From positions 31,100-95,099 of the forward strand of contig CAZOVY010000004.1 of NCBI GenBank assembly GCA_964583255.1: a stretch of 64,000 bases of DNA. The letters run 5' to 3'. The translations under genes were made by a program, and so were the position numbers. The notes under the pieces were generated by a model that was given only the letters and a program-made list of their open reading frames with translations, was not told where the DNA came from and searched no databases. The stretch is from an uncultured Brevifollis sp. GTDB lineage: Bacteria > Verrucomicrobiota > Verrucomicrobiia > Verrucomicrobiales > Verrucomicrobiaceae. Of the stretch, positions 41,293 through 55,955 are shown piece after piece. The number at the start of each line of letters is the position of its first letter. Within the stretch, counting starts at the first letter, position 1.

Positions 41293-43896
41293 TCACTTAG
41301 CCCCGTGCTTGTCCTTCAGATGCAGCACCGTCTCATCGGCGGTGTCTGCTTGAATCATGACCAAATCACCCGGCTTGGCAGAGGCTAAGGCAAGATCGAC
41401 GGCTTTGAGATGGCCTTGGATACACTCGATGCGTTTGGTTCTAGGCGCAGACTCAAAGCCCGTGGCGATGAGGCGCATGATCTCACCCGACTCACGACCG
41501 CGCACGTAGTCGCCTTCAAAGAGCCAAGCTTCGTCAAACTCCGCAGCGAGCATCCGGCCCTGCTCAATGATGTCGGAATCGCGGCGATCACCTGCGGAGG
41601 TGTAAACAACGATGCGGTGCTGATTGGTGAATGCGCGCAGGCCGTCGAGCAAGGCTCGGAGTGCATCGACATTGTGCCCATAATCGACGATGACGGTGAC
41701 GCCATTGAGATCGAGCACGTTAAAGCGCCCAGCATTTTGATCCATGCTGGGGATGAATGTGCGCGCGCCTTGACGAATGAGATCGTCATTAATTTCGAGT
41801 GCCCAGGCGGCTGCGACGGCGGCGAGTGTGTTCTCAATCTGGAAGCCGATGAGGCCGCCGAGCGTGAGTGGGATTTCACTCAATGGCATGAAGACATCCT
41901 CTTTCGGTCCCGTGGCACGAATGATCTGACCGCTGCGAATGAAGATGACGCGCTCACCTTGAAAGCGATGCCGAGTGATGACGGCGTTGTCCTCATCAAG
42001 CGCGAAGAAGATCGTTTTGCGCGGATAGGTCTCAGCCATTTTTACCACGAGCGGATCAGCCGCATTGAGCACCGCAGTTCCTGTAGCCGAGACGGCCGCG
42101 ACGATGCACTGCTTGACCTCGGCAAGCTGCTCGGCCGTGTCGATCTCGTTGATGCCGAGATGATCTCCTGCGCCGATGTTCGTGACGACAGCGACGTCGC
42201 AGTGATCAAAGGCCAACCCCTCGCGTAAAATGCCACCGCGCGCCGTCTCAAGAACGGCGGCGTCACACAGCGGAAATGAAAGGATGCTGCGCGCGCTTTT
42301 CGGCCCGCTGCAATCTCCGCTGTCGATCATGCGTGAGCCGACGAAAACACCATCGGTACTTGTCAATCCCACACGCCAGCCGTTTTGAGTCAGCAGATGC
42401 GCGATGAATCGCGTCGTGGTCGTTTTGCCATTTACGCCAGTCACAGCCACGATGGGAATGCGGCCATTGCAATCGGCTGCAAACATCGTGTCGATCACCG
42501 CTTTACCGACGGGCCGCGCTTCGCCCTCGGAAGGATACAAATGCATGCGCAGACCAGGGCGTGCATTCAGCTCAATGATGACGCCATTACGCGGACTGAG
42601 CGGCGCGCTGATGTCCGGTGCGATCATATCGATGCCACAAATATCGAGTCCTACCGTCTGCGCAGCCTCCACCGCAGCCGCACAAATCGTGGGGTGAACT
42701 TCCGCCGTGCAATCAACCGCTGTGCCGCCAGTGCTGAGATTTGCGTTACGGCGGATGAGGATCATGCGGCCTTTTTCAGGCACCGAATCTGGCGTGCAAT
42801 CTTGCTCAGTCAGCACAGCCGCGGCCACGGCATCAATGCGAATTTTGCTCAGTGCCGCCGCGTGATCTGAAGCACGACGTGGGTCACGGTTCTTCTCGGC
42901 AATGAGCTCTTGAATGCTGTGTTCACCATCACCAATGACATGTGCGGGATGACGCCGAGAAGCGGCAATGAGTTCGCGCCCGATCACCAGCACGCGGTAA
43001 TCATCACCTTCAGCGAACTGCTCCACGAGCACTGAGTCACTTTCGGCAAATGCAGCCTCGTAAGCCGTGGTGATCTGCTCGCGGGTGTACAGATTCAGTG
43101 CCACGCCACGTCCCTGATTCCCATCCAGAGGCTTCACCACGACGGGCAGACCTATCTCATTGGCCGCAGCCCAGGCATCATCAGCCGACTTCACTGGACG
43201 GCCCTGCGGCACTGGCAAACCGACTTCATTCAGCAGTCGTCGCGTCAGATCTTTGTCTTGGACGATGTCCTCAGAGATCGCGCTCGTCTGGCTGGTGGCT
43301 GCTGCGAGAATTTTCTTTTGCTTCACGCCCCAGCCCAGTTGCACCAAGCTACCTGACGTGAGTCGGCGCACGGGAATACCGCGCAACTTCGCCGCATCCA
43401 CCATCGCCCGTGTGCTGGGTCCGAGGCAGACTTCATTCGCCAGATCACTCAATTCAAGAATCGCTGCATTCACATCCAAGACCTGCCCCCACAGCGCCGC
43501 ATCGATGATTAGTCGTGCGAGTTGGAAGGCCGCACGCGCCACCGCCTCTTCGTCAAATTGCGTGATGATTCGAAGCACGTGCGGCTCAGATGTTGGCACC
43601 ACTTTGCCAAAGGTGACCTGCAAATCTGTGCGACTCTGTAGATGCAGAGTGATGAGCTGAAGCAGGCTCGCGAGCGTCTGCGTGTCGGGTTCATGCAATT
43701 CACGCACTGGCACTTCGAGCGCCGGCAGCCAAGACACGAGCCAGTCCTTCCAGTTAGGCACGACGCCACTCAGCGGCGGAAATCCGACTCGACACTCCAA
43801 GACCGTATCACGCCCCCACAGATTCGGCCCGCGCAGAGCGTGGATTTTGCGAGCAAGGGTGGAGCGAATTTCGCTGGATGGAATAGTAGAAGACAA
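41293..43896 (-). CDS. cphA: Cyanophycin synthetase, full-length copy with intact ATP-grasp and Mur-ligase domains
   Basis: LRGPNLW, LGPST, KPLDGNQGRGV, NANLSTGG, ELNARPGLRMH, TGVNGKTT, ETARGG, DHLG, GRFN and DYGHN. TTG start. Confidence 0.95.
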   Translation of the reverse strand: MSSTIPSSEIRSTLARKIHALRGPNLWGRDTVLECRVGFPPLSGVVPNWKDWLVSWLPALEVPVRELHEPDTQTLASLLQLITLHLQSRTDLQVTFGKVVPTSEPHVLRIITQFDEEAVARAAFQLARLIIDAALWGQVLDVNAAILELSDLANEVCLGPSTRAMVDAAKLRGIPVRRLTSGSLVQLGWGVKQKKILAAATSQTSAISEDIVQDKDLTRRLLNEVGLPVPQGRPVKSADDAWAAANEIGLPVVVKPLDGNQGRGVALNLYTREQITTAYEAAFAESDSVLVEQFAEGDDYRVLVIGRELIAASRRHPAHVIGDGEHSIQELIAEKNRDPRRASDHAAALSKIRIDAVAAAVLTEQDCTPDSVPEKGRMILIRRNANLSTGGTAVDCTAEVHPTICAAAVEAAQTVGLDICGIDMIAPDISAPLSPRNGVIIELNARPGLRMHLYPSEGEARPVGKAVIDTMFAADCNGRIPIVAVTGVNGKTTTTRFIAHLLTQNGWRVGLTSTDGVFVGSRMIDSGDCSGPKSARSILSFPLCDAAVLETARGGILREGLAFDHCDVAVVTNIGAGDHLGINEIDTAEQLAEVKQCIVAAVSATGTAVLNAADPLVVKMAETYPRKTIFFALDEDNAVITRHRFQGERVIFIRSGQIIRATGPKEDVFMPLSEIPLTLGGLIGFQIENTLAAVAAAWALEINDDLIRQGARTFIPSMDQNAGRFNVLDLNGVTVIVDYGHNVDALRALLDGLRAFTNQHRIVVYTSAGDRRDSDIIEQGRMLAAEFDEAWLFEGDYVRGRESGEIMRLIATGFESAPRTKRIECIQGHLKAVDLALASAKPGDLVMIQADTADETVLHLKDKHGAK

Positions 43897-43989: not shown

Positions 43990-46245
43990 TTGAAATCAAC
44001 ACAGGCCGTCAGATTGACAAGAACCGCAACCACGGGACTGTCCGCCGTCGATTTCGACCCTGCTTTGCCCACTCCAATCACCAGCCAAACTCACGAGACT
44101 CTGCTCCAGCATGCCGAAAAGCAACTGGTCGCTGGTGAACGAGTCATAGCCAGGTTGTTGATCGATCTGGACGCCAGTTTGCATTTCCATGGCGGACTCA
44201 TCGTGCTCACGAACACTCGCCTGCTGCATGTCGAAGTTGCGCACTTTCACGCTTGGAAGCTAGCTGATTTACAAGATCTGAAGTTGGAAGAGATGGGCGC
44301 CACGGCGGCCATCCACTTGATGCAGTCAGAGTCCAGCGTGTGGCATTGGCGGATCACTTCCGGCCATCTGCGCGAGGTGGAGGCTTTTGTAGCAAGGTTT
44401 AAAGAACAGCGCGGCACGGCAAATTCTGACAGTGACGCTACTGAGGACGATGAAGATGTATTTTCCGCTGAAGAACCCATGGCTGAAACCTTCACGGGAC
44501 TGCCACTGCTCCGGCTCTTTAAATTTTCCAGCAAGTGGTACAAGCTTATGCTGCTTGGGTTCGTTCTGACCGTTGCCAGTACAGGCTCCGGGTTGGTCGG
44601 CCCGTGGCTCACGATGTCACTCGTTGATGACGTGCTCATCCCGCTACAAACCGCTACGAGCGACGTGCTTGTCGAGCGTGTGTATCATTTCATGCTGATG
44701 CTGGCAGGAGCAGCGCTGCTGACCTGGGTACTGCAGTGGGCGACAACTTATGTCATCTCGCGCGTGGCGGAGCGCGTGACCAGCCACATGCGGCGAGCAA
44801 CATTTGAGCATCTGCAAAAACTCTCGCTGACTTATTTTAACAAAAAGCGCACCGGGGATCTGATCTCACGCATCGGCTCGGACACGGACAATATCTCGCT
44901 CTTCATCTCGGTCGATTTCATCGACTTCGCCTGTGATCTGCTGACGATTCTTTTTACCGCAGTGATTCTGTTCTCGCTCAATCCAATGCTCGCCCTAGCA
45001 GCGATCGGGCCGCTGCCGATTGTGGCCTGGCTGGTGCAGTGGGTGCGCAGCCACCTGCGCGGTGGCTTTGCTGCAGCGAGCCGTGCGTGGAGTGCGATGA
45101 ACAGCGTGCTCTCTGACACGATCCCTGGCGTGCGGGTCGTCAAAGCCTTCGCGCAAGAGCAGCGTGAGATCGAACGCTTCCGTGAGCAGGATCAGCAAAT
45201 CTTTGACACCAATGACCGTGTGAACCGTACATGGTCCTTCTTTGAACCGACGATCAGTTTGCTGACGGACATCGGTCTGCTCATCGTCTGGAGTGTCGGC
45301 GCATGGAGCGTCGCGGGCGGAAACACCACCGTCGGTGTGCTGACAGGCTTCGTTCTCTACGTGGGCAGATTCTACGGCAAGCTGGACAACATGAGCCGCT
45401 TCCTCGCTTCTGCACAACGGGCGGCGACCAGCGCGCATCGCATCTTCGACATCCTTGATGTGAAGCCCGACATGCCGATCACTTCAGGTATGCGCAAGGT
45501 TGGTCGTTTGAGCGGTGAGATCGAGTTTCGCGGCATCAAATTCCGCCACGGCTCACGTCAGATCATTCGCGGTATCGACCTGAAAATCGCGCCCGGTGAA
45601 ATGATCGGCCTCGTCGGACCGAGTGGTGCTGGAAAGACAACGTTAGTTAATCTCGCCTGCCGTTTCTTCGATGTCAGTGAGGGCGCCGTGTTGGTCGATG
45701 GACACGACCTGCGCGAGATCGATGTCGTCGATTACCGGCGTAATCTCGGCCTGGTTTTGCAGGAGCCGTATTTGTTCTTTGGCACCATCGCTGAAAACAT
45801 CGCGTATGGGAAGCCAGACGCGACACGCGCTGAAATCATCGCCGCTGCTAAGGCGGCTCGTGCGCATGATTTCATCCTGAAACTCACAGACTCTTATGAC
45901 TCGATGGTCGGCGAGCGTGGGCAGCAGCTTTCCGGCGGAGAGCGTCAGCGCATCAGCATCGCACGCGCCTTGATCGTCGATCCGGCGATCTTGATTCTCG
46001 ATGAAGCCACCTCATCTGTGGACACCGAAACCGAGCGCGAGATCCAGGCCGCACTCGATCATCTCGTCAAAGGCCGCACCACCATCGCCATCGCGCATCG
46101 TCTCGGCACTTTGCGAAAAGCGAACCGGCTCGTGGTCGTGGAAAACGGAATCATCAGTGAAATCGGCACGCATGAAGATCTCATGAACCGCAGCGGCACT
46201 TATGCACGGCTGCATCAGGCCATGGTTGAGGTGAACGCAGCATGA
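43990..46245 (+). CDS. ABC transporter (TMD+NBD) with N-terminal extra domain, cyanophycin-associated type
   Basis: GPSGAGKTT, LSGGERQR, ILDEAT and a multi-TM domain. Coupled to the DUF1854 gene and adjacent to cphA. Confidence 0.92.
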   Translation: MKSTQAVRLTRTATTGLSAVDFDPALPTPITSQTHETLLQHAEKQLVAGERVIARLLIDLDASLHFHGGLIVLTNTRLLHVEVAHFHAWKLADLQDLKLEEMGATAAIHLMQSESSVWHWRITSGHLREVEAFVARFKEQRGTANSDSDATEDDEDVFSAEEPMAETFTGLPLLRLFKFSSKWYKLMLLGFVLTVASTGSGLVGPWLTMSLVDDVLIPLQTATSDVLVERVYHFMLMLAGAALLTWVLQWATTYVISRVAERVTSHMRRATFEHLQKLSLTYFNKKRTGDLISRIGSDTDNISLFISVDFIDFACDLLTILFTAVILFSLNPMLALAAIGPLPIVAWLVQWVRSHLRGGFAAASRAWSAMNSVLSDTIPGVRVVKAFAQEQREIERFREQDQQIFDTNDRVNRTWSFFEPTISLLTDIGLLIVWSVGAWSVAGGNTTVGVLTGFVLYVGRFYGKLDNMSRFLASAQRAATSAHRIFDILDVKPDMPITSGMRKVGRLSGEIEFRGIKFRHGSRQIIRGIDLKIAPGEMIGLVGPSGAGKTTLVNLACRFFDVSEGAVLVDGHDLREIDVVDYRRNLGLVLQEPYLFFGTIAENIAYGKPDATRAEIIAAAKAARAHDFILKLTDSYDSMVGERGQQLSGGERQRISIARALIVDPAILILDEATSSVDTETEREIQAALDHLVKGRTTIAIAHRLGTLRKANRLVVVENGIISEIGTHEDLMNRSGTYARLHQAMVEVNAA

Positions 46246-46664
46246 TCGACCTCATCTCCATCCTCCAGCAGCCTGATGTGCTCCCCGTGCGACTCTTTCC
46301 TCTCACAGATCCGGCGCACTGGGTCGCCATACTGGATGCGAAAGGGCATGAGATCGCCTGCATCGAAGATCCGACCACGCTCGATGCTCCTCAACGCGCC
46401 GCGCTCGATGCGGCGCTTGCCAAGCGTCATTTCGTGCCGGTCATCCGCCGTATCGTGGCGATCACACGAGCTCCAGATGGCCACGACTGGCTCGTCGAAA
46501 CCGACCGCGGCACCACGACCTTTCGCATCGAGACGGACGAGAGCATCCAGAGTCTCGGTGGCGGTCGTCTTGTAATCATCGACAAACTGGGCACGCGCTA
46601 TCTCGTGCCAAAGATGACCGACTTAGATCGCGAGAGCCGGCGCAAACTCGAACGCTACTACTGA
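46242..46664 (+). CDS. DUF1854 family protein
   Basis: PVRLFPLTDP, FVP.I.RI, W.VETDRG and D..G.RY motifs. ATGA overlap with the ABC gene. Confidence 0.88.
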   Translation: MIDLISILQQPDVLPVRLFPLTDPAHWVAILDAKGHEIACIEDPTTLDAPQRAALDAALAKRHFVPVIRRIVAITRAPDGHDWLVETDRGTTTFRIETDESIQSLGGGRLVIIDKLGTRYLVPKMTDLDRESRRKLERYY

Positions 46665-46671
46665 CCCATCT

Positions 46672-48726
46672 ATGAACCTCGTCTTCTGTTTGGTTAGCCT
46701 TCTCGGCGCCTTCCTGCTGTTTCAAGTTCAGCCCGTCATCAGCAAATTCATCCTGCCATGGTTCGGCGGAAGTCCCGGCGTGTGGACGACGTGCATGCTG
46801 TTTTTCCAAGTCGTGTTATTTGGTGGTTACAGCTACGCGCACTTGCTCGCGAAATGTCGGCCACGCACGCAGGCTTGGGTGCACGGTGCAGCGCTGCTGA
46901 TCGCAGCCCTGCTGCTACCCATCGTGCCAGATGCGGCGCTGAAACCCACCGGAGCTGAAGAACCAGTCCTGCGTATTTTGATGCTGCTCGCGTGGACCGT
47001 CGGCTTTCCCTACCTCGTCCTATCTGCCACCAGCCCGCTGCTTCAAGTGTGGTTTTCACATTTGTATCCGCAGCGCAGCCCATGGCGCTTGTATTCACTA
47101 TCGAATATCGGCTCACTCACCGCGCTGCTGACTTATCCCGTATTGATCGAGACACGGTGGGATGTGATGACGCAGGCGCAGATATGGTCCGGCGTTTTCG
47201 TCGTGTTTGTGCTGCTCATGGCTGTCTGCGCCTTCACCAATCGCACGCGCCCAGATGTGATCACGCCGGAGGGTGATCCACATCCGCAGGCGGAAACACA
47301 TGCAATCAAACCTACTTGGATGCGCCGCGTGCTGTGGCTGCTGCTGCCAGGTTTTGCCTCACTGCTCCTGCTGAGTACCACCAATCATGTTTGTCAGGAT
47401 GTCGCGGTGATTCCATTTTTATGGGTCGCGCCTCTCAGTCTGTATCTCGTCTCATTCATCATCTGCTTTGATCATCCGCGCTGGTATGCACGCAGCGCGT
47501 GGGCACTGCCGGCGATGGCGCTGCTGTTCTTTGGCTCCGGCATGTACCAGTTTGATTTTGGAGACTGGTCACCTGGCTTCATCTTTGAGCTCTGCGTGCT
47601 CCTGGCGGCCATGTTTGCCGTATGCATGGTCTGTCATGGCGAACTCGCCCGCTTGAAGCCCTCTACGAAGTATCTCACCGAGTATTACTTGCTCATGTCT
47701 GCGGGCGGCGCGCTCGGAGGTCTGATCGTGAGCATCGTCGCACCGCTCATGTTTGATACCTACATGGAGTGGTCGTTGGCACTGCTCGCTGGGTTTATGT
47801 TGGTTGCCTGGGCAGCCTTTGCGGGGCTGCCAGCCTTCCTGCGGATCAAACCGGCGGCTATCGGTTGGGCGGCACTGACGCTGACTGGAGTGGTTTATAT
47901 GAGCGAGTGGGAGTTCTCTTTTGAGGAGAGACTCGAGCGGCATCGTGACTTCTACGGCATGCTCTCGGTCAACGAATACGAGGACGACGACAATGGCGAA
48001 ACCCTGCGCTCTTTCATCAGCGGCACCATCAAGCATGGCCGCCAAAACATGACGCCTGCGAAACTGCGTGATCCGCTGACCTACTACTCGCGGCCCACAG
48101 GAATCGGTCGCGCGCTCGAATCACTGAAGACCATCCCGGACGCCAAAGTGGGCGTGATCGGCATGGGGGCAGGCACCGTGGCCTGCTACGCGGAAAGAGG
48201 GCAGACATACCGCTTTTATGAGATCAATCCCAGTGCCGTGCGCCTGGCCTTAAAGTATTTCACCTTCATCCCTGATCTGGAGGCACGCGGTGCCCATTAC
48301 GAAGCCCACCTGGGCGATGCGCGCCTCACTTTGGAGCACGAAGCGCCGCAAAACTTCGATGTGCTGCTCATCGACGCCTTCAGTGGTGACTCCGTCCCCG
48401 TGCACCTCCTCACGCGCGAGGCCTTTGAACTGTATCAGCGGCACATGAAACCCGATGGCATCATCGCCGTGCACATCACGAACCATTCACTCAATCTGGC
48501 CCCCGTCGTCGAGCGCGCCGCGCGTGAGTTCGGTCTGCACAGCATCCGCATCGCCAACAAAACCGAGGAATCCGGCTGCTACCCCACCGATTACGTGCTG
48601 CTGACGCGCAATACCGCTTTCATCCAGGCGAATCCGCCCGTGGAGCCTGCCTATGCGCGTGCGATCGACGTGCCTTTGTGGACCGATCACCGCCACAATC
48701 TGTTTCAGATTTTGGACAATCGCTAA
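46672..48726 (+). CDS. Membrane protein fused to a spermidine-synthase-like SAM-dependent domain
   Basis: Multi-TM N-terminal region (LLFQVQP...K.ILPWFGG), then IGMGAGT, YEINP, GDAR, DAFSGD and WTD. Confidence 0.88.
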   Translation: MNLVFCLVSLLGAFLLFQVQPVISKFILPWFGGSPGVWTTCMLFFQVVLFGGYSYAHLLAKCRPRTQAWVHGAALLIAALLLPIVPDAALKPTGAEEPVLRILMLLAWTVGFPYLVLSATSPLLQVWFSHLYPQRSPWRLYSLSNIGSLTALLTYPVLIETRWDVMTQAQIWSGVFVVFVLLMAVCAFTNRTRPDVITPEGDPHPQAETHAIKPTWMRRVLWLLLPGFASLLLLSTTNHVCQDVAVIPFLWVAPLSLYLVSFIICFDHPRWYARSAWALPAMALLFFGSGMYQFDFGDWSPGFIFELCVLLAAMFAVCMVCHGELARLKPSTKYLTEYYLLMSAGGALGGLIVSIVAPLMFDTYMEWSLALLAGFMLVAWAAFAGLPAFLRIKPAAIGWAALTLTGVVYMSEWEFSFEERLERHRDFYGMLSVNEYEDDDNGETLRSFISGTIKHGRQNMTPAKLRDPLTYYSRPTGIGRALESLKTIPDAKVGVIGMGAGTVACYAERGQTYRFYEINPSAVRLALKYFTFIPDLEARGAHYEAHLGDARLTLEHEAPQNFDVLLIDAFSGDSVPVHLLTREAFELYQRHMKPDGIIAVHITNHSLNLAPVVERAAREFGLHSIRIANKTEESGCYPTDYVLLTRNTAFIQANPPVEPAYARAIDVPLWTDHRHNLFQILDNR

Positions 48727-48774: not shown

Positions 48775-49872
48775 ATGAGTCCAAGCCAAAACAAATCCAC
48801 AACCGAGCGGTTGCCGTTTCTGGATGCTTTGCGTGCTTTGGCATCCGTGCTGATCGTGTGGCACCACTTTGCGCTCTATCCGCCTTTGAATGAGCAGGCC
48901 GAGCCGATCCTCGGCGCACTCGTTCTTTGGTTCAGCGAGTACGCGCGGTCCACGCAGGTCTTCTTCGTGATCGGCGGCTTTGTCATGGCCCGCAGCATGT
49001 CCGGCATGAGTTGGGATGTCAGGGCAATCAGGCACTTCATCGCCAAACGCTACTGTCGTCTCGGGATTCCCTACCTCGCGGCCATTGGCCTCGCACTGGC
49101 GGCCAATGGCTTCGGTCGTGGATGGTTGCCGGATGACGTGGTCGGACCACCGCCGACGCTGGCGCAGCTCCTCGCACATGTTTTTTTCGTGCAGGAACTG
49201 ATGGGCTACGAGCACGTCTCCGCTGGCCTGTGGTTTGTCTGCATCAATTTCCAACTGGGACTGATCTACGCCATCATGCTCTGGCTGCGCGACACCCTCG
49301 CCGGCGTTTTGAAAATCCCAACCGCCTCACCGTGGATCAATGTCCCGATTTTGGCCGGTTGGATTCTGTCTCTCAGCTCCCTGTTCTACTTCAACTGTGA
49401 CTCCGACTGGGATTCGTGGGGCATCTACTTCTTCCCGTATTTCTTCATGGGAGTCGTGGTTCATCAGGCGCTGAAAAGCCGGGCTTCGGCACCCATGTTC
49501 TGGGCCTACCAGCTAATGATCATCGCCTCCATGTGTTTCGACTGGCGCTGGCGACTGATGAGCGCGCTGATCGTTGGTCTGCTGCTGTTTGGGGCGGATA
49601 AATCCGGCCTCGCCGCACGCTGGCCCCGCAGCAGGTGGATCGCTCAAATGGGAAAAGTATCTTACAGCCTCTTCCTCGTACATTTCCCCGTTCTATTGGT
49701 GATTTCCACCCTGTGGACTCGCTTTGGCTGGACCTCCGCGCCCGCCGCAGTCGTTGGCCTGCTGGTGGCCTTCGCGGCAAGCGTGGCCACGGCCTTCGTT
49801 TTCCATCGTCGGGTGGAAAAGCCGACTGCGGCGCTCAAGCGGAAAGGACGAAGGTCAGCCTCAAGCTATTGA
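48775..49872 (+). CDS. Acyltransferase-3 (OafA-like) membrane acyltransferase
   Basis: LDALRALA...V.HH, FFVIGGF, RYCRL, GKVSYSLFLVHFPV and VEKP. Confidence 0.9.
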   Translation: MSPSQNKSTTERLPFLDALRALASVLIVWHHFALYPPLNEQAEPILGALVLWFSEYARSTQVFFVIGGFVMARSMSGMSWDVRAIRHFIAKRYCRLGIPYLAAIGLALAANGFGRGWLPDDVVGPPPTLAQLLAHVFFVQELMGYEHVSAGLWFVCINFQLGLIYAIMLWLRDTLAGVLKIPTASPWINVPILAGWILSLSSLFYFNCDSDWDSWGIYFFPYFFMGVVVHQALKSRASAPMFWAYQLMIIASMCFDWRWRLMSALIVGLLLFGADKSGLAARWPRSRWIAQMGKVSYSLFLVHFPVLLVISTLWTRFGWTSAPAAVVGLLVAFAASVATAFVFHRRVEKPTAALKRKGRRSASSY

Positions 49873-50961
49873 AGCATCCAGCGCCTTGATGATCTCGCAG
49901 TGCGGTGCGCGCACGAACTTGGCCGATTCGCGCGTGGCATCCAGACTGCCGCCACCTGCATACACGTCGATGGGATCACTCAGCCGATGCATCAGCTCAT
50001 ACACGCGTGCGCAGGCCTCCTTGTCGGCCAGGGTTCGCGCCACCAACGCCTCCACCTTGGTTTCATCGACTTGCAAATCGCCTTCAGCGTCGCGGAAGGT
50101 CGAGTCACGCCAGTGGTGAATTTCGATGCACTTGGTCAGCATGGTGAAGGGCGCGTCACGCTTCCAAAAATTGGAAAACAGACCTCCTCCGAGGTAGATC
50201 ACCCAGGATCCTTCATAGCCGGTGGCTTCCTCAGAACCTTCATCCGGATTGCGAAACCAGACGCGTTCTCCCGGCACGTAATAGTGGATGGGCATTGGGC
50301 TGTTCAAGGTCCCCCGTTCGTCGAGGAAGACTTCATTGAAAGCCGTCGCTCGGAGCGCCTTCCGTTCCCACTGTGACTGCAAACGCTGCAGCAACTCTGG
50401 ATGACATTCACAGGCCTCCTCGGCGATCGAAAGCAGCACCACATACTCGACCGCTCTGGAACAGGAAAAAGAATACAATGGGCCATCTGGTTCCGGCTGG
50501 CAGGCTTTCCTCAATGATTCGATCAAGGGACTGCCTGGAATCAACACAAAGCCGGTTTCTGATGAGTAACGCCAGCAGTCCGGCGGACGCTCAACGGCCA
50601 TGGTGTCGAAATTGAGGCAGGTGCGCGCGGCATTGCGCGCGATGTTTCGGCGGATGTTCACCGAGGACTGAAGCTCCTCGGCGCTCGGAAATTCCAGCAG
50701 GAGAGGGCTGTTCAGCAGCGTCAGCCAAATCTCACGCAGCAAGTCGTCGTCATCGTTTTGACCGGCGAGTCTCAGCGTCGCGGTGAGTTCGAGCGTGTCG
50801 AAATCCGGCATCCAGGCTTGAGCATCGGTCGTCAAGGTGAGCCGAACGGAGCCATCAGCGGCTTGATCGGAAATTATGTGTATTTCGATCCCCAAGCGTT
50901 GCCACTCCGCCTGCAGGAGTGCGAAGTTCGAGTTTGTTGAGATGCGTGCCCCTAACTGCAT
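49861..50961 (-). CDS. Tgl-like protein-glutamine gamma-glutamyltransferase (cysteine transglutaminase fold)
   Basis: WR....GF.L, GPLYSFSCSRA (Cys167) and YVPGERVWFRNPD...EG.WVIYLG resemble recalled Bacillus Tgl motifs (GPFYAFECATA; GD..YFKNP...GEN.I.LG). Confidence 0.7.
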   Translation of the reverse strand: MQLGARISTNSNFALLQAEWQRLGIEIHIISDQAADGSVRLTLTTDAQAWMPDFDTLELTATLRLAGQNDDDDLLREIWLTLLNSPLLLEFPSAEELQSSVNIRRNIARNAARTCLNFDTMAVERPPDCWRYSSETGFVLIPGSPLIESLRKACQPEPDGPLYSFSCSRAVEYVVLLSIAEEACECHPELLQRLQSQWERKALRATAFNEVFLDERGTLNSPMPIHYYVPGERVWFRNPDEGSEEATGYEGSWVIYLGGGLFSNFWKRDAPFTMLTKCIEIHHWRDSTFRDAEGDLQVDETKVEALVARTLADKEACARVYELMHRLSDPIDVYAGGGSLDATRESAKFVRAPHCEIIKALDASIA

Positions 50962-51033: not shown

Positions 51034-53196
51034 TTAATTCGAACCAAAACTCCTCAATCCTTCCGCGATCGCAGCGTCACTCAGTCCATAGGCCCACGCA
51101 GCACCGGCAGCGGCGAGCACGTTTTCGAGATGAAAGGCGAAATGACCGCTCAACGGTAGCGAAATGTCGCTCAGGGAACAAAGCTGGCGTGCTGTTTCGC
51201 CTTCAGCGAGATGGAGGAAATCGTCCTGCGCAAACACCGCGCGCCCACCACTCGCTCGATGTGCGTTGAGTTTGGCATTCGCGGCGTCACGGGAGAAAAA
51301 TAGGACGCTTCCTTTGCAGTGCTCGGCCATGCCGGCCACATAAACATCATCCGCATTCAGCACGACGGTGCCCCCAGGCAGCACGACATCCACGACACAG
51401 CGTTTCACTTTTGTCATCTGCTCCAGCGTGTCGATGTAGCCGAGTCCGAGGTGCTCCGTGCCTATATTGAGGACCACGCCGATCTGACAGCGGTCATAGC
51501 CGATGCCTTCGAGGACGATCGACTCCGCGCTTGTCTCGCAGATCGCGATTTCCGTCCACGGATGCAGCAGCACGCCCTGGGTGCCAAAAATACGGTCACC
51601 CTTCTTGGATTCGGCCACGCGGTCGCCAAACTGAAGTCCGTCACTGCCACAGACACCGAGAAACTTGCCCGTCGATTTCATCAAATGCGTCAGCAGCTTG
51701 ACCACGGTTGTTTTTCCATGCGAGCCCGTGATTCCGATGACCGGGATGCGGCCATCTTCAGTTTCGGGGAAAAGCATGTTGATGATCGCCTCACCGACAG
51801 GGCGACCCTTGCCCATGGCCGGCTTCAAATGGACGTTGAGCCCTGGACTCGCATTGATCTCGACGATGGCTCCGCCTTGCTCCTCCAACGGACGGCTGAC
51901 ATCGCGACACACCACGTCGATCCCGCAGATGTCGAGGCCCGCAGTCTTTGCCGCCACCACGACGTGCTCACGGATGCTCGGATGCACGTCATCCGTCACA
52001 TCCACAGATGGATTGGCAAAGCGCCATACCAGAACGCGCTCGCCATCGCGGGGAATCGACGTCATGTCGTGGCCTTGCTTCTGAAGATCCGCCATCATGG
52101 TCGGATCAATATCAGTCAAGGTGCCGATGATGGACCACGGTGTTGTATCATGCGTGCCACGGCGCGGATCACTGTTTAACTGCGCCTCGATCAAGTCGCG
52201 CACGGTCTGCGCGCCATCGCCGACGATACACGCAGGCTCACCACGATTCGCAGCGACCATTTCAGAACCCACCACTAGCAAGCGATGATCCACACCAGGA
52301 ATGAAGCGCTCAATCATGACTCCAGAGCCTTCCTTGAGCGCCTGCGGGTATGCTTCGATGATTTGTTCGCGCGTACAGAGATCAATGAATACCCCACGAC
52401 CGTGGTTGCCATCGGTAGGCTTCAACACGACTGGCAAGCCCACCTCCTCAGCAGCATTCCAGGCATCATTTGCATCGTTCACCACACGTCCTTCTGGCAC
52501 AGGAACACCTGCCTGGCGTAGTATGGTGCGCGTGAGATCCTTGTCTTGTGCGATGTGTTCCGCGATCGCCCCCGTGCAGTCAGATTCCGCCGTCCAGATG
52601 CGGCGCTGTTTCACGCCTTGACCGAACTGGATGAGACTGCGGCCCTCCTGAAGTCTGCGCCATGGGATGCCGCGCTCCTTCGCAGCATCCACGATGGATT
52701 TCGTGCTAGGCCCGAGTGCATTGCGATCCACCACACCCTGCAAACGAGTCACCTCTGCCGCGACATCAAACGTTCCGCCTGAATAAGCCGCCAGCAGCAG
52801 CTCACGCGCACTGCGCAGACATTCCTGCACCACCACCTCATCCAGATAACGAACGATGACTTTGTAGAGACCTTCCACGCACGTCTCCCGTGCTTTACCA
52901 AAGCCAAGCTGGTGACCCGCGAGCGTCTGCAACTCCAGCGTCACATGCTCCAAGATATGCGCAGGGTAAGTGCCACGATCTAACCGCTGAAAGAAGCCGC
53001 CACGCTCACCCACACTGCACCTATGCTCGATCATTCCCGGCAGCCATGACTTGAGTCGCTCATTGAATCCCGTGATCTCCTCCGACGACGCATCCTTCAG
53101 GCTGCCCAGATCCACCCAAGCTTCCAGCACAGGATAATTTGCCCAGATATTGGGACCGCGCAGAAGATGGATTTCACGAATGTCGAGATCAGGCAT
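51034..53196 (-). CDS. cphA: Cyanophycin synthetase paralogue, short copy (N-domain C/HxxEH site intact; C-terminal Mur lid domain absent)
   Basis: LRGPNIW, EHRCSVGERGGFFQRL..GTYPAHILEH, LGPST, KPTDGNHGRGV and TGSHGKTT. Ends at GLRSFGSN. Start at MPDLD. Confidence 0.92.
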   Translation of the reverse strand: MPDLDIREIHLLRGPNIWANYPVLEAWVDLGSLKDASSEEITGFNERLKSWLPGMIEHRCSVGERGGFFQRLDRGTYPAHILEHVTLELQTLAGHQLGFGKARETCVEGLYKVIVRYLDEVVVQECLRSARELLLAAYSGGTFDVAAEVTRLQGVVDRNALGPSTKSIVDAAKERGIPWRRLQEGRSLIQFGQGVKQRRIWTAESDCTGAIAEHIAQDKDLTRTILRQAGVPVPEGRVVNDANDAWNAAEEVGLPVVLKPTDGNHGRGVFIDLCTREQIIEAYPQALKEGSGVMIERFIPGVDHRLLVVGSEMVAANRGEPACIVGDGAQTVRDLIEAQLNSDPRRGTHDTTPWSIIGTLTDIDPTMMADLQKQGHDMTSIPRDGERVLVWRFANPSVDVTDDVHPSIREHVVVAAKTAGLDICGIDVVCRDVSRPLEEQGGAIVEINASPGLNVHLKPAMGKGRPVGEAIINMLFPETEDGRIPVIGITGSHGKTTVVKLLTHLMKSTGKFLGVCGSDGLQFGDRVAESKKGDRIFGTQGVLLHPWTEIAICETSAESIVLEGIGYDRCQIGVVLNIGTEHLGLGYIDTLEQMTKVKRCVVDVVLPGGTVVLNADDVYVAGMAEHCKGSVLFFSRDAANAKLNAHRASGGRAVFAQDDFLHLAEGETARQLCSLSDISLPLSGHFAFHLENVLAAAGAAWAYGLSDAAIAEGLRSFGSN

Positions 53197-53297
53197 GGGA
53201 GTCGAAATTACCCGTGCGGTGATAACAGGCAAGGCTTCGTGGTTAAATGTCTGGAGCACGTAAGAACTAGTCTTTGAGACCGAATACGTATTCCCAC

Positions 53298-54563
53298 ATG
53301 ACACGCCTTCTATTCGCTTGCCTCCTGCTTGCCAACGCCTCCGCCGCCGAACTTTCAGTCACCTCTTATCCGACGATTCAAGAGGCGCTGAATGCGAATC
53401 CGAACCGCATAATGTTTGTTCCGGCAGGTGATTATTCGATCACGGAAAAGATTCGTATTCGGGGTGAACGCAGCGGTTTGATGGGGCCGGGCCGCATCAT
53501 CCAGCAAAGTGCGGACCAGCCGATCATCGAGATCGAGAATGCCAATGGCGCGGAGATTCGTGATCTGACGCTCACGCGACCGGAAGGGAAGATGGAGTCC
53601 CGCAATGAGGGAATCATTGCCATCAAATGCCGCGATCTCGTCATCGAAAATGTGCGCGTGATCGACAACCGCAGTGCCGCCGGAGCTATCACGCTACGTG
53701 ATAGCCAGAACTGTCGCATCAGCCGCTGTCTGGTGCGGAACTACATGCGACTGAGCGTGGATGACCGCACAGCAAATAAAGACCTGGGCTACGCCTTCAA
53801 CTGCACCGACGGCACGGGCATCAGCGTGAGCTACAGCACCGGCACTCTGATCGAAGGCAATCGAGTCGTTGAGGACAACATGGTGCCGACACCGGAACTC
53901 AAGGCGAAGCACAAGCTGGGTGACTGGATCAAAAAAAACGCGGAGAAAGGCAGCATCGTCAATCAGGCAACATGGGATCTGAACTACACGGACGCCTGGC
54001 AACAAGGCTCCGGCATCATCGTCACCGCGCCAGAGGTGAGCGACCTCACACGCATCCACAGCAATCACATTGAAAACGCCGCACAGGGTATCGACCTGCA
54101 TTCGGATCACGTCATCGTTTCGAACAACATCGTCGTGAACTCCTTCATGGGCATGAAGGCCATGCATGGCTCGCGCAATGTGATCATCACAGGTAATCAG
54201 TTCGTCAAAAACTGCCTCTGGGCCATCGGCCTCATGCCTGGTGCGGCGGCGAATGCTGGGAACGCGGATGGCGGATCGATCATCGCCAACAACATCATCT
54301 CCGACTTCGGTCATGGCGACGCGCATTGGATCTGGGGAGACGAGCGCTCACCCTTCAAATTTGATACAGGCCAGCAGCCCGACGACCCACCGCTTACCGA
54401 CGTCATCGTGCAGGGCAACATCGTCCACAGCATCGGTAAACCGCGCTACGAGTACGCCGTCATCATCCCCGGCGGCCCGAACACACCGCGTGGCATGCAT
54501 TTTTCCAACAACCTCTTCCACCCAGGAACACAAGGCGTGGCCAACACCGAGTTGCCGCATTGA
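53298..54563 (+). CDS. Secreted right-handed parallel beta-helix protein
   Basis: Signal peptide and TIQEAL...VPAGDY, followed by repeated I.GN/I.NN rungs. Confidence 0.85.
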   Translation: MTRLLFACLLLANASAAELSVTSYPTIQEALNANPNRIMFVPAGDYSITEKIRIRGERSGLMGPGRIIQQSADQPIIEIENANGAEIRDLTLTRPEGKMESRNEGIIAIKCRDLVIENVRVIDNRSAAGAITLRDSQNCRISRCLVRNYMRLSVDDRTANKDLGYAFNCTDGTGISVSYSTGTLIEGNRVVEDNMVPTPELKAKHKLGDWIKKNAEKGSIVNQATWDLNYTDAWQQGSGIIVTAPEVSDLTRIHSNHIENAAQGIDLHSDHVIVSNNIVVNSFMGMKAMHGSRNVIITGNQFVKNCLWAIGLMPGAAANAGNADGGSIIANNIISDFGHGDAHWIWGDERSPFKFDTGQQPDDPPLTDVIVQGNIVHSIGKPRYEYAVIIPGGPNTPRGMHFSNNLFHPGTQGVANTELPH

Positions 54564-54596
54564 CGCTGCGGGCGAAAGCTCCCAAGATCGCGGCTG

Positions 54597-55955
54597 ATGT
54601 CCTACCGCACCACGCCCGCCCAGCTTACCACGATGCCGCCCGGCATCCCCTACATCATCGGCAATGAGCTAGCTGAGCGCTTTAGCTTCTACGGGATGCG
54701 GACGATACTCATGATCTTCATGACTCAGGCGCTCGTGAATCATGAAGGCATGAAGGATGTGATGAGCGAGCCTGAGGCTGCGAAATGGATGCACATCTAC
54801 ATGGGTGCCGTTTATCTCACGCCACTCTTGGGCGGTCTTTTGGCCGATCTCTGGTTAGGCAAATACCGAACCATCATCTGCCTGTCACTGCTCTACTGTG
54901 TGGGGCATCTCATTCTGGCCCTGGATCAAACTCGGCAGGGACTGTTTCTGGGGCTTTCCTGCGTCGCTCTCGGCGCGGGCGGCATCAAGCCCTGCGTGGC
55001 CTCCCATGTCGGAGATCAGTTTGGTGCCAGCAATTCGCACCTGCTGCCGCGCATGTACAACTGGTTCTACTTTGCGATCAATTTTGGCTCTTTCTTCTCC
55101 ACCCTGCTAACTCCGTGGTTGATGAAACATTATGGCCCACATGTCGCCTTTGGCGTGCCTGGGATTTTCATGCTCGTCGCCACCATTCTGTTTTGGATGG
55201 GTCGGCATAAATTTGCTCATATCCCCCCGCAGCCACAGGTCTTCTGGCAGGAGCTTAACCGACCGGATGTGCTGCGCTCCATCGCTGGCCTGGCCATGAT
55301 TTACGCCTTCATCGCCATGTTCTGGAGTCTGTTTGATCAAACCGCCTCTAGGTGGGTCACGCAGGCCACTCACATGGATTTGAATGTCTTCGGTGTGCAG
55401 GTCCTGCCAGATCAGATCCAGGCCGTGAATCCCCTTTTCGTGCTGGCCATGATTCCCTTCTTTTCGCTGGTCGTTTATCCTCTCGTTGGCAAGATCTTCA
55501 CGCTCACGCCACTGCGGAAAATCTGCGCGGGCTTCGGCGTCGCCGCCGTTTCGTTCATCATTCCAGGCTTGATTGAAACCTGGATCGCGGCAGGCGAAAC
55601 GCCCAGCATCTGGTGGCAGATCTTGGCCTATCTCTTGATCACTTCAGCGGAGATCATGGTTTCCATCACCGCGCTTGAGTTCAGCTACACGCAGGCTCCT
55701 GCGCGGCTAAAGTCCTTCATCATGGGCCTCTTCTACGCCAGTGTGTTTCTTGGCAATCTCTTCACCTCACTGGTCAATGCATCGATCGAAAAAGCCGGGC
55801 TTTCGAGCGCACTGAATGGCTCGGCCTACTACTGGTTCTTCGTGCAGTGCATGGCTGTTACAACCGTGCTGTTTGTCTTCGTCGCCATGTTTTATAAAGG
55901 CCGGACCTACCTTCAGGGGGATGACGCCGAGCCGTGCACGCCTGAGATTCATTGA
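54597..55955 (+). CDS. POT/PTR family proton-dependent oligopeptide transporter
   Basis: ELAERFSFYGMR (ExxERFxYY-like), GGIKP..GDQF, FYFAINFGS and EFSYTQAP. Confidence 0.93.
   Translation: MSYRTTPAQLTTMPPGIPYIIGNELAERFSFYGMRTILMIFMTQALVNHEGMKDVMSEPEAAKWMHIYMGAVYLTPLLGGLLADLWLGKYRTIICLSLLYCVGHLILALDQTRQGLFLGLSCVALGAGGIKPCVASHVGDQFGASNSHLLPRMYNWFYFAINFGSFFSTLLTPWLMKHYGPHVAFGVPGIFMLVATILFWMGRHKFAHIPPQPQVFWQELNRPDVLRSIAGLAMIYAFIAMFWSLFDQTASRWVTQATHMDLNVFGVQVLPDQIQAVNPLFVLAMIPFFSLVVYPLVGKIFTLTPLRKICAGFGVAAVSFIIPGLIETWIAAGETPSIWWQILAYLLITSAEIMVSITALEFSYTQAPARLKSFIMGLFYASVFLGNLFTSLVNASIEKAGLSSALNGSAYYWFFVQCMAVTTVLFVFVAMFYKGRTYLQGDDAEPCTPEIH

Follow-up and report, generated by a model that had tools for sequence, protein, structure and literature searches.

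An uncultured Brevifollis sp. of the Verrucomicrobiota carries a gene for a cysteine enzyme with the fold of the Bacillus spore-coat transglutaminase Tgl, associated with a pair of cyanophycin synthetases, CphA and CphA'. The gene lies at 49861..50961 on the minus strand of a 64,000-nucleotide (nt) stretch of contig CAZOVY010000004.1 (GenBank assembly GCA_964583255.1, positions 31,100 to 95,099), hereafter the window, whose numbering is used for all positions. Its 366-residue product belongs to Pfam family PF20085, has a nearly invariant cysteine (Cys167) and no signal peptide, and represents a clade that depends strictly on the CphA/CphA' pair in the genomes sampled. We consider it likely that this enzyme acts on the product of CphA and CphA'. 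More tentatively, we favor a role as an optional cytoplasmic tailoring transamidase working on the beta-aspartyl side-chain amides of that polymer.

A Tgl fold with an apparently altered active site

The protein scores 89.3 bits against the Pfam TGL model (gathering cut-off 23.7), which places it in the family, and 26.1 bits against the Tgl equivalog NF002869 (cut-off 307), so that it is no Tgl orthologue. Its sequence matches in the PDB are two Tgl structures only. We built an AlphaFold2 model from 117 homologous sequences (predicted local distance difference test score 96.9), which matches B. subtilis Tgl (4p8i) with a Foldseek E-value of 1.2e-8; the structural alignment gives Z 17.6 with a root-mean-square deviation of 4.0 over 235 aligned residues. 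When 48,161 representative chains were searched with the model, Geobacillus Tgl alone exceeded Z 8, followed by NlpC/P60 and CHAP proteins at Z about 5 (maximum 5.5), with trypanothione synthetase at Z 3.6. The protein has no match to TIGR02069 (CphB, a serine-peptidase fold) and none at E<0.001 in a viral fold library.

An earlier note made from the sequence alone had described this gene as encoding a spore-coat Tgl-like enzyme, without signal peptide, in an apparent non-sporulator. The Tgl fold is borne out, as is the lack of a signal peptide: no N-terminal hydrophobic stretch is found, the best 17-residue hydropathy being 0.6. The term spore-coat is apt for the fold alone. The own genome, 93.5% complete, yielded no match to spo0A, consistent with a non-sporulator, nor to cphB, iaaA or iadA. 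For PF20085, the available text of PMC10318531 names no enzyme but that of spores.

In Tgl, Cys116 forms a catalytic dyad with Glu187 or Glu115, and the tunnel residues are F69, W149, Y171, W184, R185, N188 and H200 (PMC6490927, available text). Judging from the alignment of the 117 homologues, in which all residue conservation was counted, the nucleophile appears retained, as do the aromatic residues that line the tunnel, both catalytic glutamates are replaced by serine, and a new acidic residue occupies the position of Arg185. The predicted nucleophile is Cys167 (codon 50461..50463, minus strand, within PLYSFSCSRAVE), aligned with Cys116 and kept in 116/117 homologues. Glu115 aligns with S166 and Glu187 with S252, each Ser in 114/117, and the segment Y249-E250-G251-S252-W253 (50203..50217, minus strand) aligns with W184-R185-G186-E187-N188. 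Arg185 thus corresponds to E250 (Glu in 116 of the 117, Asp in one more) and His200 to F265, kept bulky or aromatic in 115/117; by alignment, both glutamate partners and His200 of Tgl are thus lacking. The position of the cysteine, the PGERVWFRNPD block and the two serines had all been read correctly in the earlier note, which had made conservation of Cys167 one of its tests.

The tunnel positions remain bulky or aromatic: F69 becomes F118 (115/117), Y171 becomes W235 (116/117), W184 becomes Tyr or Phe249 (115/117) and N188 becomes W253 (112/117); W149 found no placeable counterpart. R169 and E172 are each conserved in 116/117, and position 264 is Asn in 109 homologues and Asp in 7. Both motifs are intact in 14/14 clade members of a sample chosen without the motif. 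Unrelated Tgl-like proteins, both secreted and RHS-tail ones, can have Glu at this position too, so that E250 is not unique to the clade. These other subfamilies outside spore formers comprise secreted forms with signal peptides and one member that follows an RHS-like tail (P0264; P0266; L098:6081-7337); the latter presumably represents a possible polymorphic-toxin domain.

A non-catalytic polymer-binding or granule-associated protein, with the cysteine retained for structural reasons, would account for the canonical general-base position being without a conserved His or Glu, and for a paralogue from Curvibacter (P0157) that has lost the catalytic Cys and is probably a pseudoenzyme. We nevertheless regard this as highly improbable. 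Cys167 persists in the most divergent, AT-rich members, in the 14/14 retrieved clade members of the unbiased sample and in a viral copy, whereas the nearby second cysteine, at position 339, is less conserved (102/117).

The gene belongs to a CphA/CphA' export locus

The Tgl-like gene starts 72 nt beyond the stop of the short cphA' on the same strand, as the earlier note had stated and the open reading frame ends at 50961 and 51034 confirm. That note had overlooked the rest of the same system. The window holds a complete core: cphA' (51034..53304, minus strand, probable start 53187), a long cphA (41293..43896, minus strand), a CphA-associated ATP-binding cassette (ABC) exporter (43990..46245, plus strand; NF052233, above cut-off) and its partner, a DUF1854 protein (46242..46664, plus strand; PF08909; NF052234 at 133 bits, cut-off 150). 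The available text of bioRxiv 10.1101/072470 reports that CphA, CphA', the ABC transporter and DUF1854 are cofit in two Betaproteobacteria, that cphB is usually missing with this system, and that the Cupriavidus CphA/CphA' form no cyanophycin, an exported envelope polymer being proposed; wild-type Cupriavidus is reported to make no cyanophycin (as cited in PMC11362209 and 10.1101/072470). The locus is a CphA/CphA' export system and no cphA1-cphB store, and such systems normally lack cphB.

We compared 90 CphA sequences from the retrieved loci, 45 long and 45 CphA'-type, at reference residues taken from the available text of PMC9427784 and PMC9262961, the latter describing the endo-hydrolase motif of the N-domain. 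The division of active-site residues is strict. All 45 long sequences have the Asp-binding R323, N394, S396 and R458 and the Mur-like motifs, all have Gln in place of His267, and none has the N-domain hydrolase motif. All 45 CphA' sequences keep that motif (Cx19HxxEH in the window), H267 and R309, but R323, the STG loop and R458 are gone from all of them and the C-terminal lid from 40/45. Their pocket appears remodelled, with R323 changed to Gly, the loop deleted and R458 changed to Leu, Ile or Asn. From these residues the long CphA would still build an Asp backbone and add side-chain amides, and the two proteins look like a subfunctionalised pair making an Asp-based polymer, to which CphA' may add a second residue, other than Asp. 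Together with the bioRxiv report, the residue analysis indicates that the product is probably no plain storage cyanophycin.

Upstream of cphA', on the opposite strand, lie genes for a beta-helix protein and a POT-family peptide transporter (53274-55955); a beta-helix gene also flanks cphA' at locus L009. A promoter and terminator scan gave a signal at chance level.

Distribution of the Tgl-like gene

Co-occurrence was counted in a random sample of 201 Burkholderiales genomes, 71 of which have cphA and 65 the exporter. All 15 clade members fall among the 65 exporter-bearing genomes (p=4e-8 for 14/14, with the centre genome left out and kinship ignored); a sixteenth match, at 96 bits in G436, was removed as a secreted protein from a different Tgl-like subfamily. 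The six remaining cphA genomes, exporter-free and all with a true cphB, contain the Tgl-like gene in 0/6. Among 71 genomes of the own family the gene is present in 11, all of them among the 30 that bear cphA; one of these copies ends at a contig edge. Together with the giant virus described below, these 15/15 and 11/11 co-occurrences uphold the linkage to cphA in other genomes on which the earlier note had staked its proposal.

The nearest named relatives are from Prosthecobacter, with Burkholderiales among the named relatives too, and in 301 genomes of the wider phylum the only matches were the own genome and one weak match. In a quick midpoint-rooted tree the Prosthecobacter copies are nested among betaproteobacterial ones, which suggests that the gene has moved by horizontal transfer. 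A plasmid search gave no match, and fusions of the domain numbered 0 among 4141 longer candidates, which is weak evidence. Of the 80 best GTDB loci of the gene, 29 have CphA within 10 kb. At least four arrangements occur: the Tgl-like gene follows cphA', follows cphA'-cphA-acyltransferase, is convergent with DUF1854 or follows DUF1854. CphA is nearby in 15/15 verrucomicrobial loci as against 14/65 others, many of which end at contig edges.

This distribution bears on the possibility that the enzyme is a classic protein-glutamine transglutaminase, joining proteins to polymer amines or to one another with Glu250 replacing Glu187. Pfam membership and the fold would fit, and the presence of Glu at this position in unrelated Tgl-like proteins may mean that it is a general alternative base. 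We find the idea quite improbable: the gene depends strictly on the CphA pair, in bacteria as well as in one virus, its product scores far under the Tgl equivalog cut-off, and no conserved protein-substrate gene was found in its neighborhood.

The same counts argue against a backbone depolymerase substituting for CphB, which we judge very improbable. The earlier note had suggested a stand-in for the missing cyanophycinase, and cphB was indeed found neither in the own genome nor in the giant-virus bin; a CphB-like gene also takes the place of the Tgl-like gene in 2/12 relatives. However, CphB-like genes are present in 3/15 exporter genomes with the Tgl-like gene and in 6/50 without it (p=0.42), and IaaA in 3/15 and 13/50 (p=0.74; a search covering 80/83 genomes, with G555, G570 and G573 left out), a comparison of 15 with 50 genomes and thus a small sample. 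Neither a Tgl-like nor a CphB-like gene is present in 44/65 exporter-bearing genomes. Since its distribution complements neither that of CphB nor that of IaaA, the Tgl-like gene is unlikely to be the missing degradation step. Moreover, the six exporter-free cphA genomes all have a true cphB and none has the Tgl-like gene, and CphA' already bears the endo-hydrolase motif in 45/45 sequences.

A giant virus retains the three enzymes

In a giant-virus bin (G506), one 381-kb contig encodes a Tgl-like copy that is 42% identical, has both motifs intact and sits amid typical viral genes. The same contig carries, unlinked to it and to each other, a long CphA whose N-terminus is a hydrophobic anchor, together with a short CphA' (Tgl-like L120:7755-8975; CphA L121:1168-3687; CphA' L122:1315-3264). 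The residue signatures of these two match those of the bacterial pair. Neither the exporter nor cphB nor Acyl_transf_3 was found in this bin. The retention of three unlinked genes in an exporter-less virus, a single case, argues that the Tgl-like enzyme acts on the CphA/CphA' product itself.

Four divergent Tgl-like homologues bear N-terminal anchors and are the only ones of the 117 aligned with hydropathy above 2.0; we infer that they are of viral origin. Viral scans found no further copies. A second giant-virus-like contig (L124:4893-7391) encodes an N-anchored long CphA with His267 kept and the N-site motif absent, located between RNA polymerase and thymidine-kinase-like genes.

An accessory slot next to the core

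The picture that emerges is a fixed core with optional polymer-modifying enzymes. Convergent with the Tgl-like gene, with a 12-nt 3' overlap, the window has a membrane acyltransferase gene of the Acyl_transf_3 family (48775..49872, plus strand), whose subfamily is confined to exporter-bearing genomes (22/22). Across the 80 loci a membrane acyltransferase directly adjoins the Tgl-like gene in 40, Acyl_transf_3 in 29 and NagX-like in 11, and the Acyl_transf_3 gene may be in tandem (in both orders), divergent or convergent. The NagX/HGSNAT-like membrane acetyltransferase occurs in Prosthecobacter cassettes (L014:2408-3562 and 12 other loci), and a homologue, 35% identical, lies on a different contig of the own genome.

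Twelve retrieved own-family clusters are without the Tgl-like gene, and their slot contains a NagX-like gene (five), a cyanophycinase-like lipoprotein (two), a major facilitator superfamily (MFS)/spermidine-synthase-like gene (two) or nothing (three). The cyanophycinase-like protein (L154:5264-6364, L155:5513-6613) has a lipoprotein-type signal, hinting that polymer is processed outside the cytoplasm, and scores 110 bits, below the cut-off of 126.6. In G419 (L099:6409-8641) the system-specific Acyl_transf_3 gene and a cyanophycinase-like gene diverge from each other, as do the Tgl-like and acyltransferase genes of L034, L060, L068 and L084.

Other neighbors were considered as partners and set aside. 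The fused MFS/spermidine-synthase-like gene of the window (46672..48726, plus strand) lies inside the cassette, but as a fixed polyamine supplier it fails on distribution, with 35/201 genomes, 5/65 of those bearing the system and 1/15 of those with the Tgl-like gene; it is a probable passenger. A Transglut_core gene with a twin-arginine translocation (Tat) signal is divergent from the Tgl-like gene in 17 loci (L072:8569-9681 and 16 others), and a thioredoxin-like gene is near it in 16; we take both to reflect local synteny in Comamonadaceae.

Proposed function and mechanism

Amine exchange and cross-linking were among the roles raised in the earlier note, and this line of thought still leads. 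We favor a transamidase because the nearest structure is a transferase and the tunnel aromatics are kept, and because acyltransferases, which need amine or hydroxyl acceptors, cluster with the gene and the virus retains it. On the predicted model, the contrast between Z 17.6 for a transamidase and at most 5.5 for NlpC/P60 hydrolases would count in the same direction. In the mechanism we propose, Cys167 would attack a beta-Asp-Xaa isopeptide, Xaa (Arg or another residue) would leave as a thioester forms on the cysteine, and an amine, which could be a diamine, a Lys side chain, another chain or a protein, would resolve it. Speculatively, the change of Glu187 to Ser could make room for the alpha-carboxylate of the leaving residue or for Glu250 as a base, and Glu250, at the position of Arg185, could flip the charge at the donor entrance to fit a cationic side chain. 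Such an enzyme would yield a polymer with edited chemistry or with cross-links, which bacteria would export and to which the neighboring membrane acyltransferase might add further acyl groups.

The main rival is a side-chain isopeptidase, in which water would resolve the same thioester, so that Arg or another side residue comes off the polymer, or off beta-Asp-Xaa dipeptides, to tune polymer charge or recycle nitrogen. Most relatives in the fold search are NlpC/P60 or CHAP hydrolases, and cytoplasmic CHAP amidases paired with ATP-grasp ligases, the glutathionylspermidine and trypanothione synthetase-amidases, provide a precedent. The own genome, without a cphB, iaaA or iadA match, would also suit it. 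We still hold this alternative to be somewhat unlikely: IaaA is not complementary to the Tgl-like gene, the closest fold is that of a transferase with a conserved aromatic tunnel, and a giant virus, in which related copies may be anchored to membranes, would have less obvious use for a recycling enzyme.

Several points weigh against the transamidase. By alignment it lacks both glutamates that Tgl requires according to the available text of PMC6490927. The cyanophycinase-like lipoprotein in the slot of 2/12 relatives fits a hydrolase, and cross-linking in the cytoplasm ahead of ABC export is hard to picture. The spermidine-synthase-like neighbor, not being co-distributed, points to no amine acceptor. 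The gene is optional, occurring in 15/65 exporter-bearing Burkholderiales and 11/30 own-family genomes, and 2/11 own-family copies look broken (a split gene in G555, a remnant in G570). An obligate pairing with Acyl_transf_3 can be rejected, the two genes being statistically independent (5/15 with the Tgl-like gene and 17/50 without, p=1) though often adjacent. Finally, the neighborhood of homologues and cphA that the earlier note had looked for is present in 29/80 loci, yet in 0/15 retrieved loci of the random Burkholderiales sample cphA is near the gene.

A broader version of the transamidase proposal has three parts: CphA and CphA' would make a structural peptide polymer other than cyanophycin; the Tgl-fold family would be the first transamidase to act on a non-ribosomal poly-amino-acid, using a His-less, Glu-shifted or substrate-assisted site to exchange or cross-link the beta-aspartyl side chains; and giant viruses would have acquired all three enzymes so as to produce a cross-linked polymer in their factories or particles. 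As a whole we think it unlikely.

The CphA/CphA'-exporter system is present in about a third of the sampled Burkholderiales (65/201), and two dedicated accessory families, the Tgl-like enzymes and the Acyl_transf_3 subfamily, can now be added to it. With these families and the strict residue split between CphA and CphA', the polymer chemistry becomes directly testable by co-expression. If the transamidase proposal is true, the enzyme would be an ATP-independent editor of cyanophycin-type side chains and a tool for biopolymer engineering. The Tgl fold and the core CphA/CphA' system are already known. No publication was found on the link between them, on the changed active site, on the acyltransferase accessories or on the viral trio. 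Our literature search, with most subscription journals outside it, returned nothing linking a transglutaminase to cyanophycin synthetase, nothing on a giant-virus cyanophycin synthetase and a single paper in which DUF1854 is mentioned.

Comparison with known systems

The closest known enzymes are the Tgl proteins of Bacillus subtilis and Geobacillus (PDB 4P8I and 7C9J; PF20085). The window protein shares their fold (Z 17.6 and 15.3), nucleophilic Cys, PGD-x-x-x-F-[RK]-N-P block, aromatic tunnel positions and cytoplasmic location. It differs in its 17-19% structural identity, a length greater by about 100 residues, the aligned replacements of Glu115 and Glu187 by Ser, Arg185 by Glu and His200 by Phe, and the non-sporulating hosts of its clade and their CphA/CphA' pair.

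The betaproteobacterial CphA/CphA', ABC and DUF1854 system (bioRxiv 10.1101/072470, available text; NF052233, NF052234) shares its full core with the window. Unlike it, the window system belongs to a verrucomicrobium, and the content of its accessory slot varies (Tgl-like, Acyl_transf_3, NagX-like or cyanophycinase-like lipoprotein); neither a Tgl-like nor an acyltransferase accessory is mentioned in the available portion of that report.

The synthetase domains of the storage system cphA1-cphB-iaaA/iadA/cphZ (PMC10206079, PMC9974463 and PMC9262961, available text) are homologous to the window pair. The features held in common with storage CphA are divided, the Asp-binding residues lying in the long CphA and the N-domain hydrolase motif in CphA'. 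In contrast to the storage system, the window splits functions over two genes, has Gln in place of His267 in the long copy and includes an exporter, and cphB, iaaA and iadA were not found in its genome.

NlpC/P60 and CHAP amidases reach just Z 3.5-5.5 to the window protein, which is without a catalytic His at the expected strand position. The pairing of a papain-like Cys core with a ligase that forms amide bonds is nonetheless familiar from PgdS, which belongs with poly-gamma-glutamate, and from glutathionylspermidine amidase.

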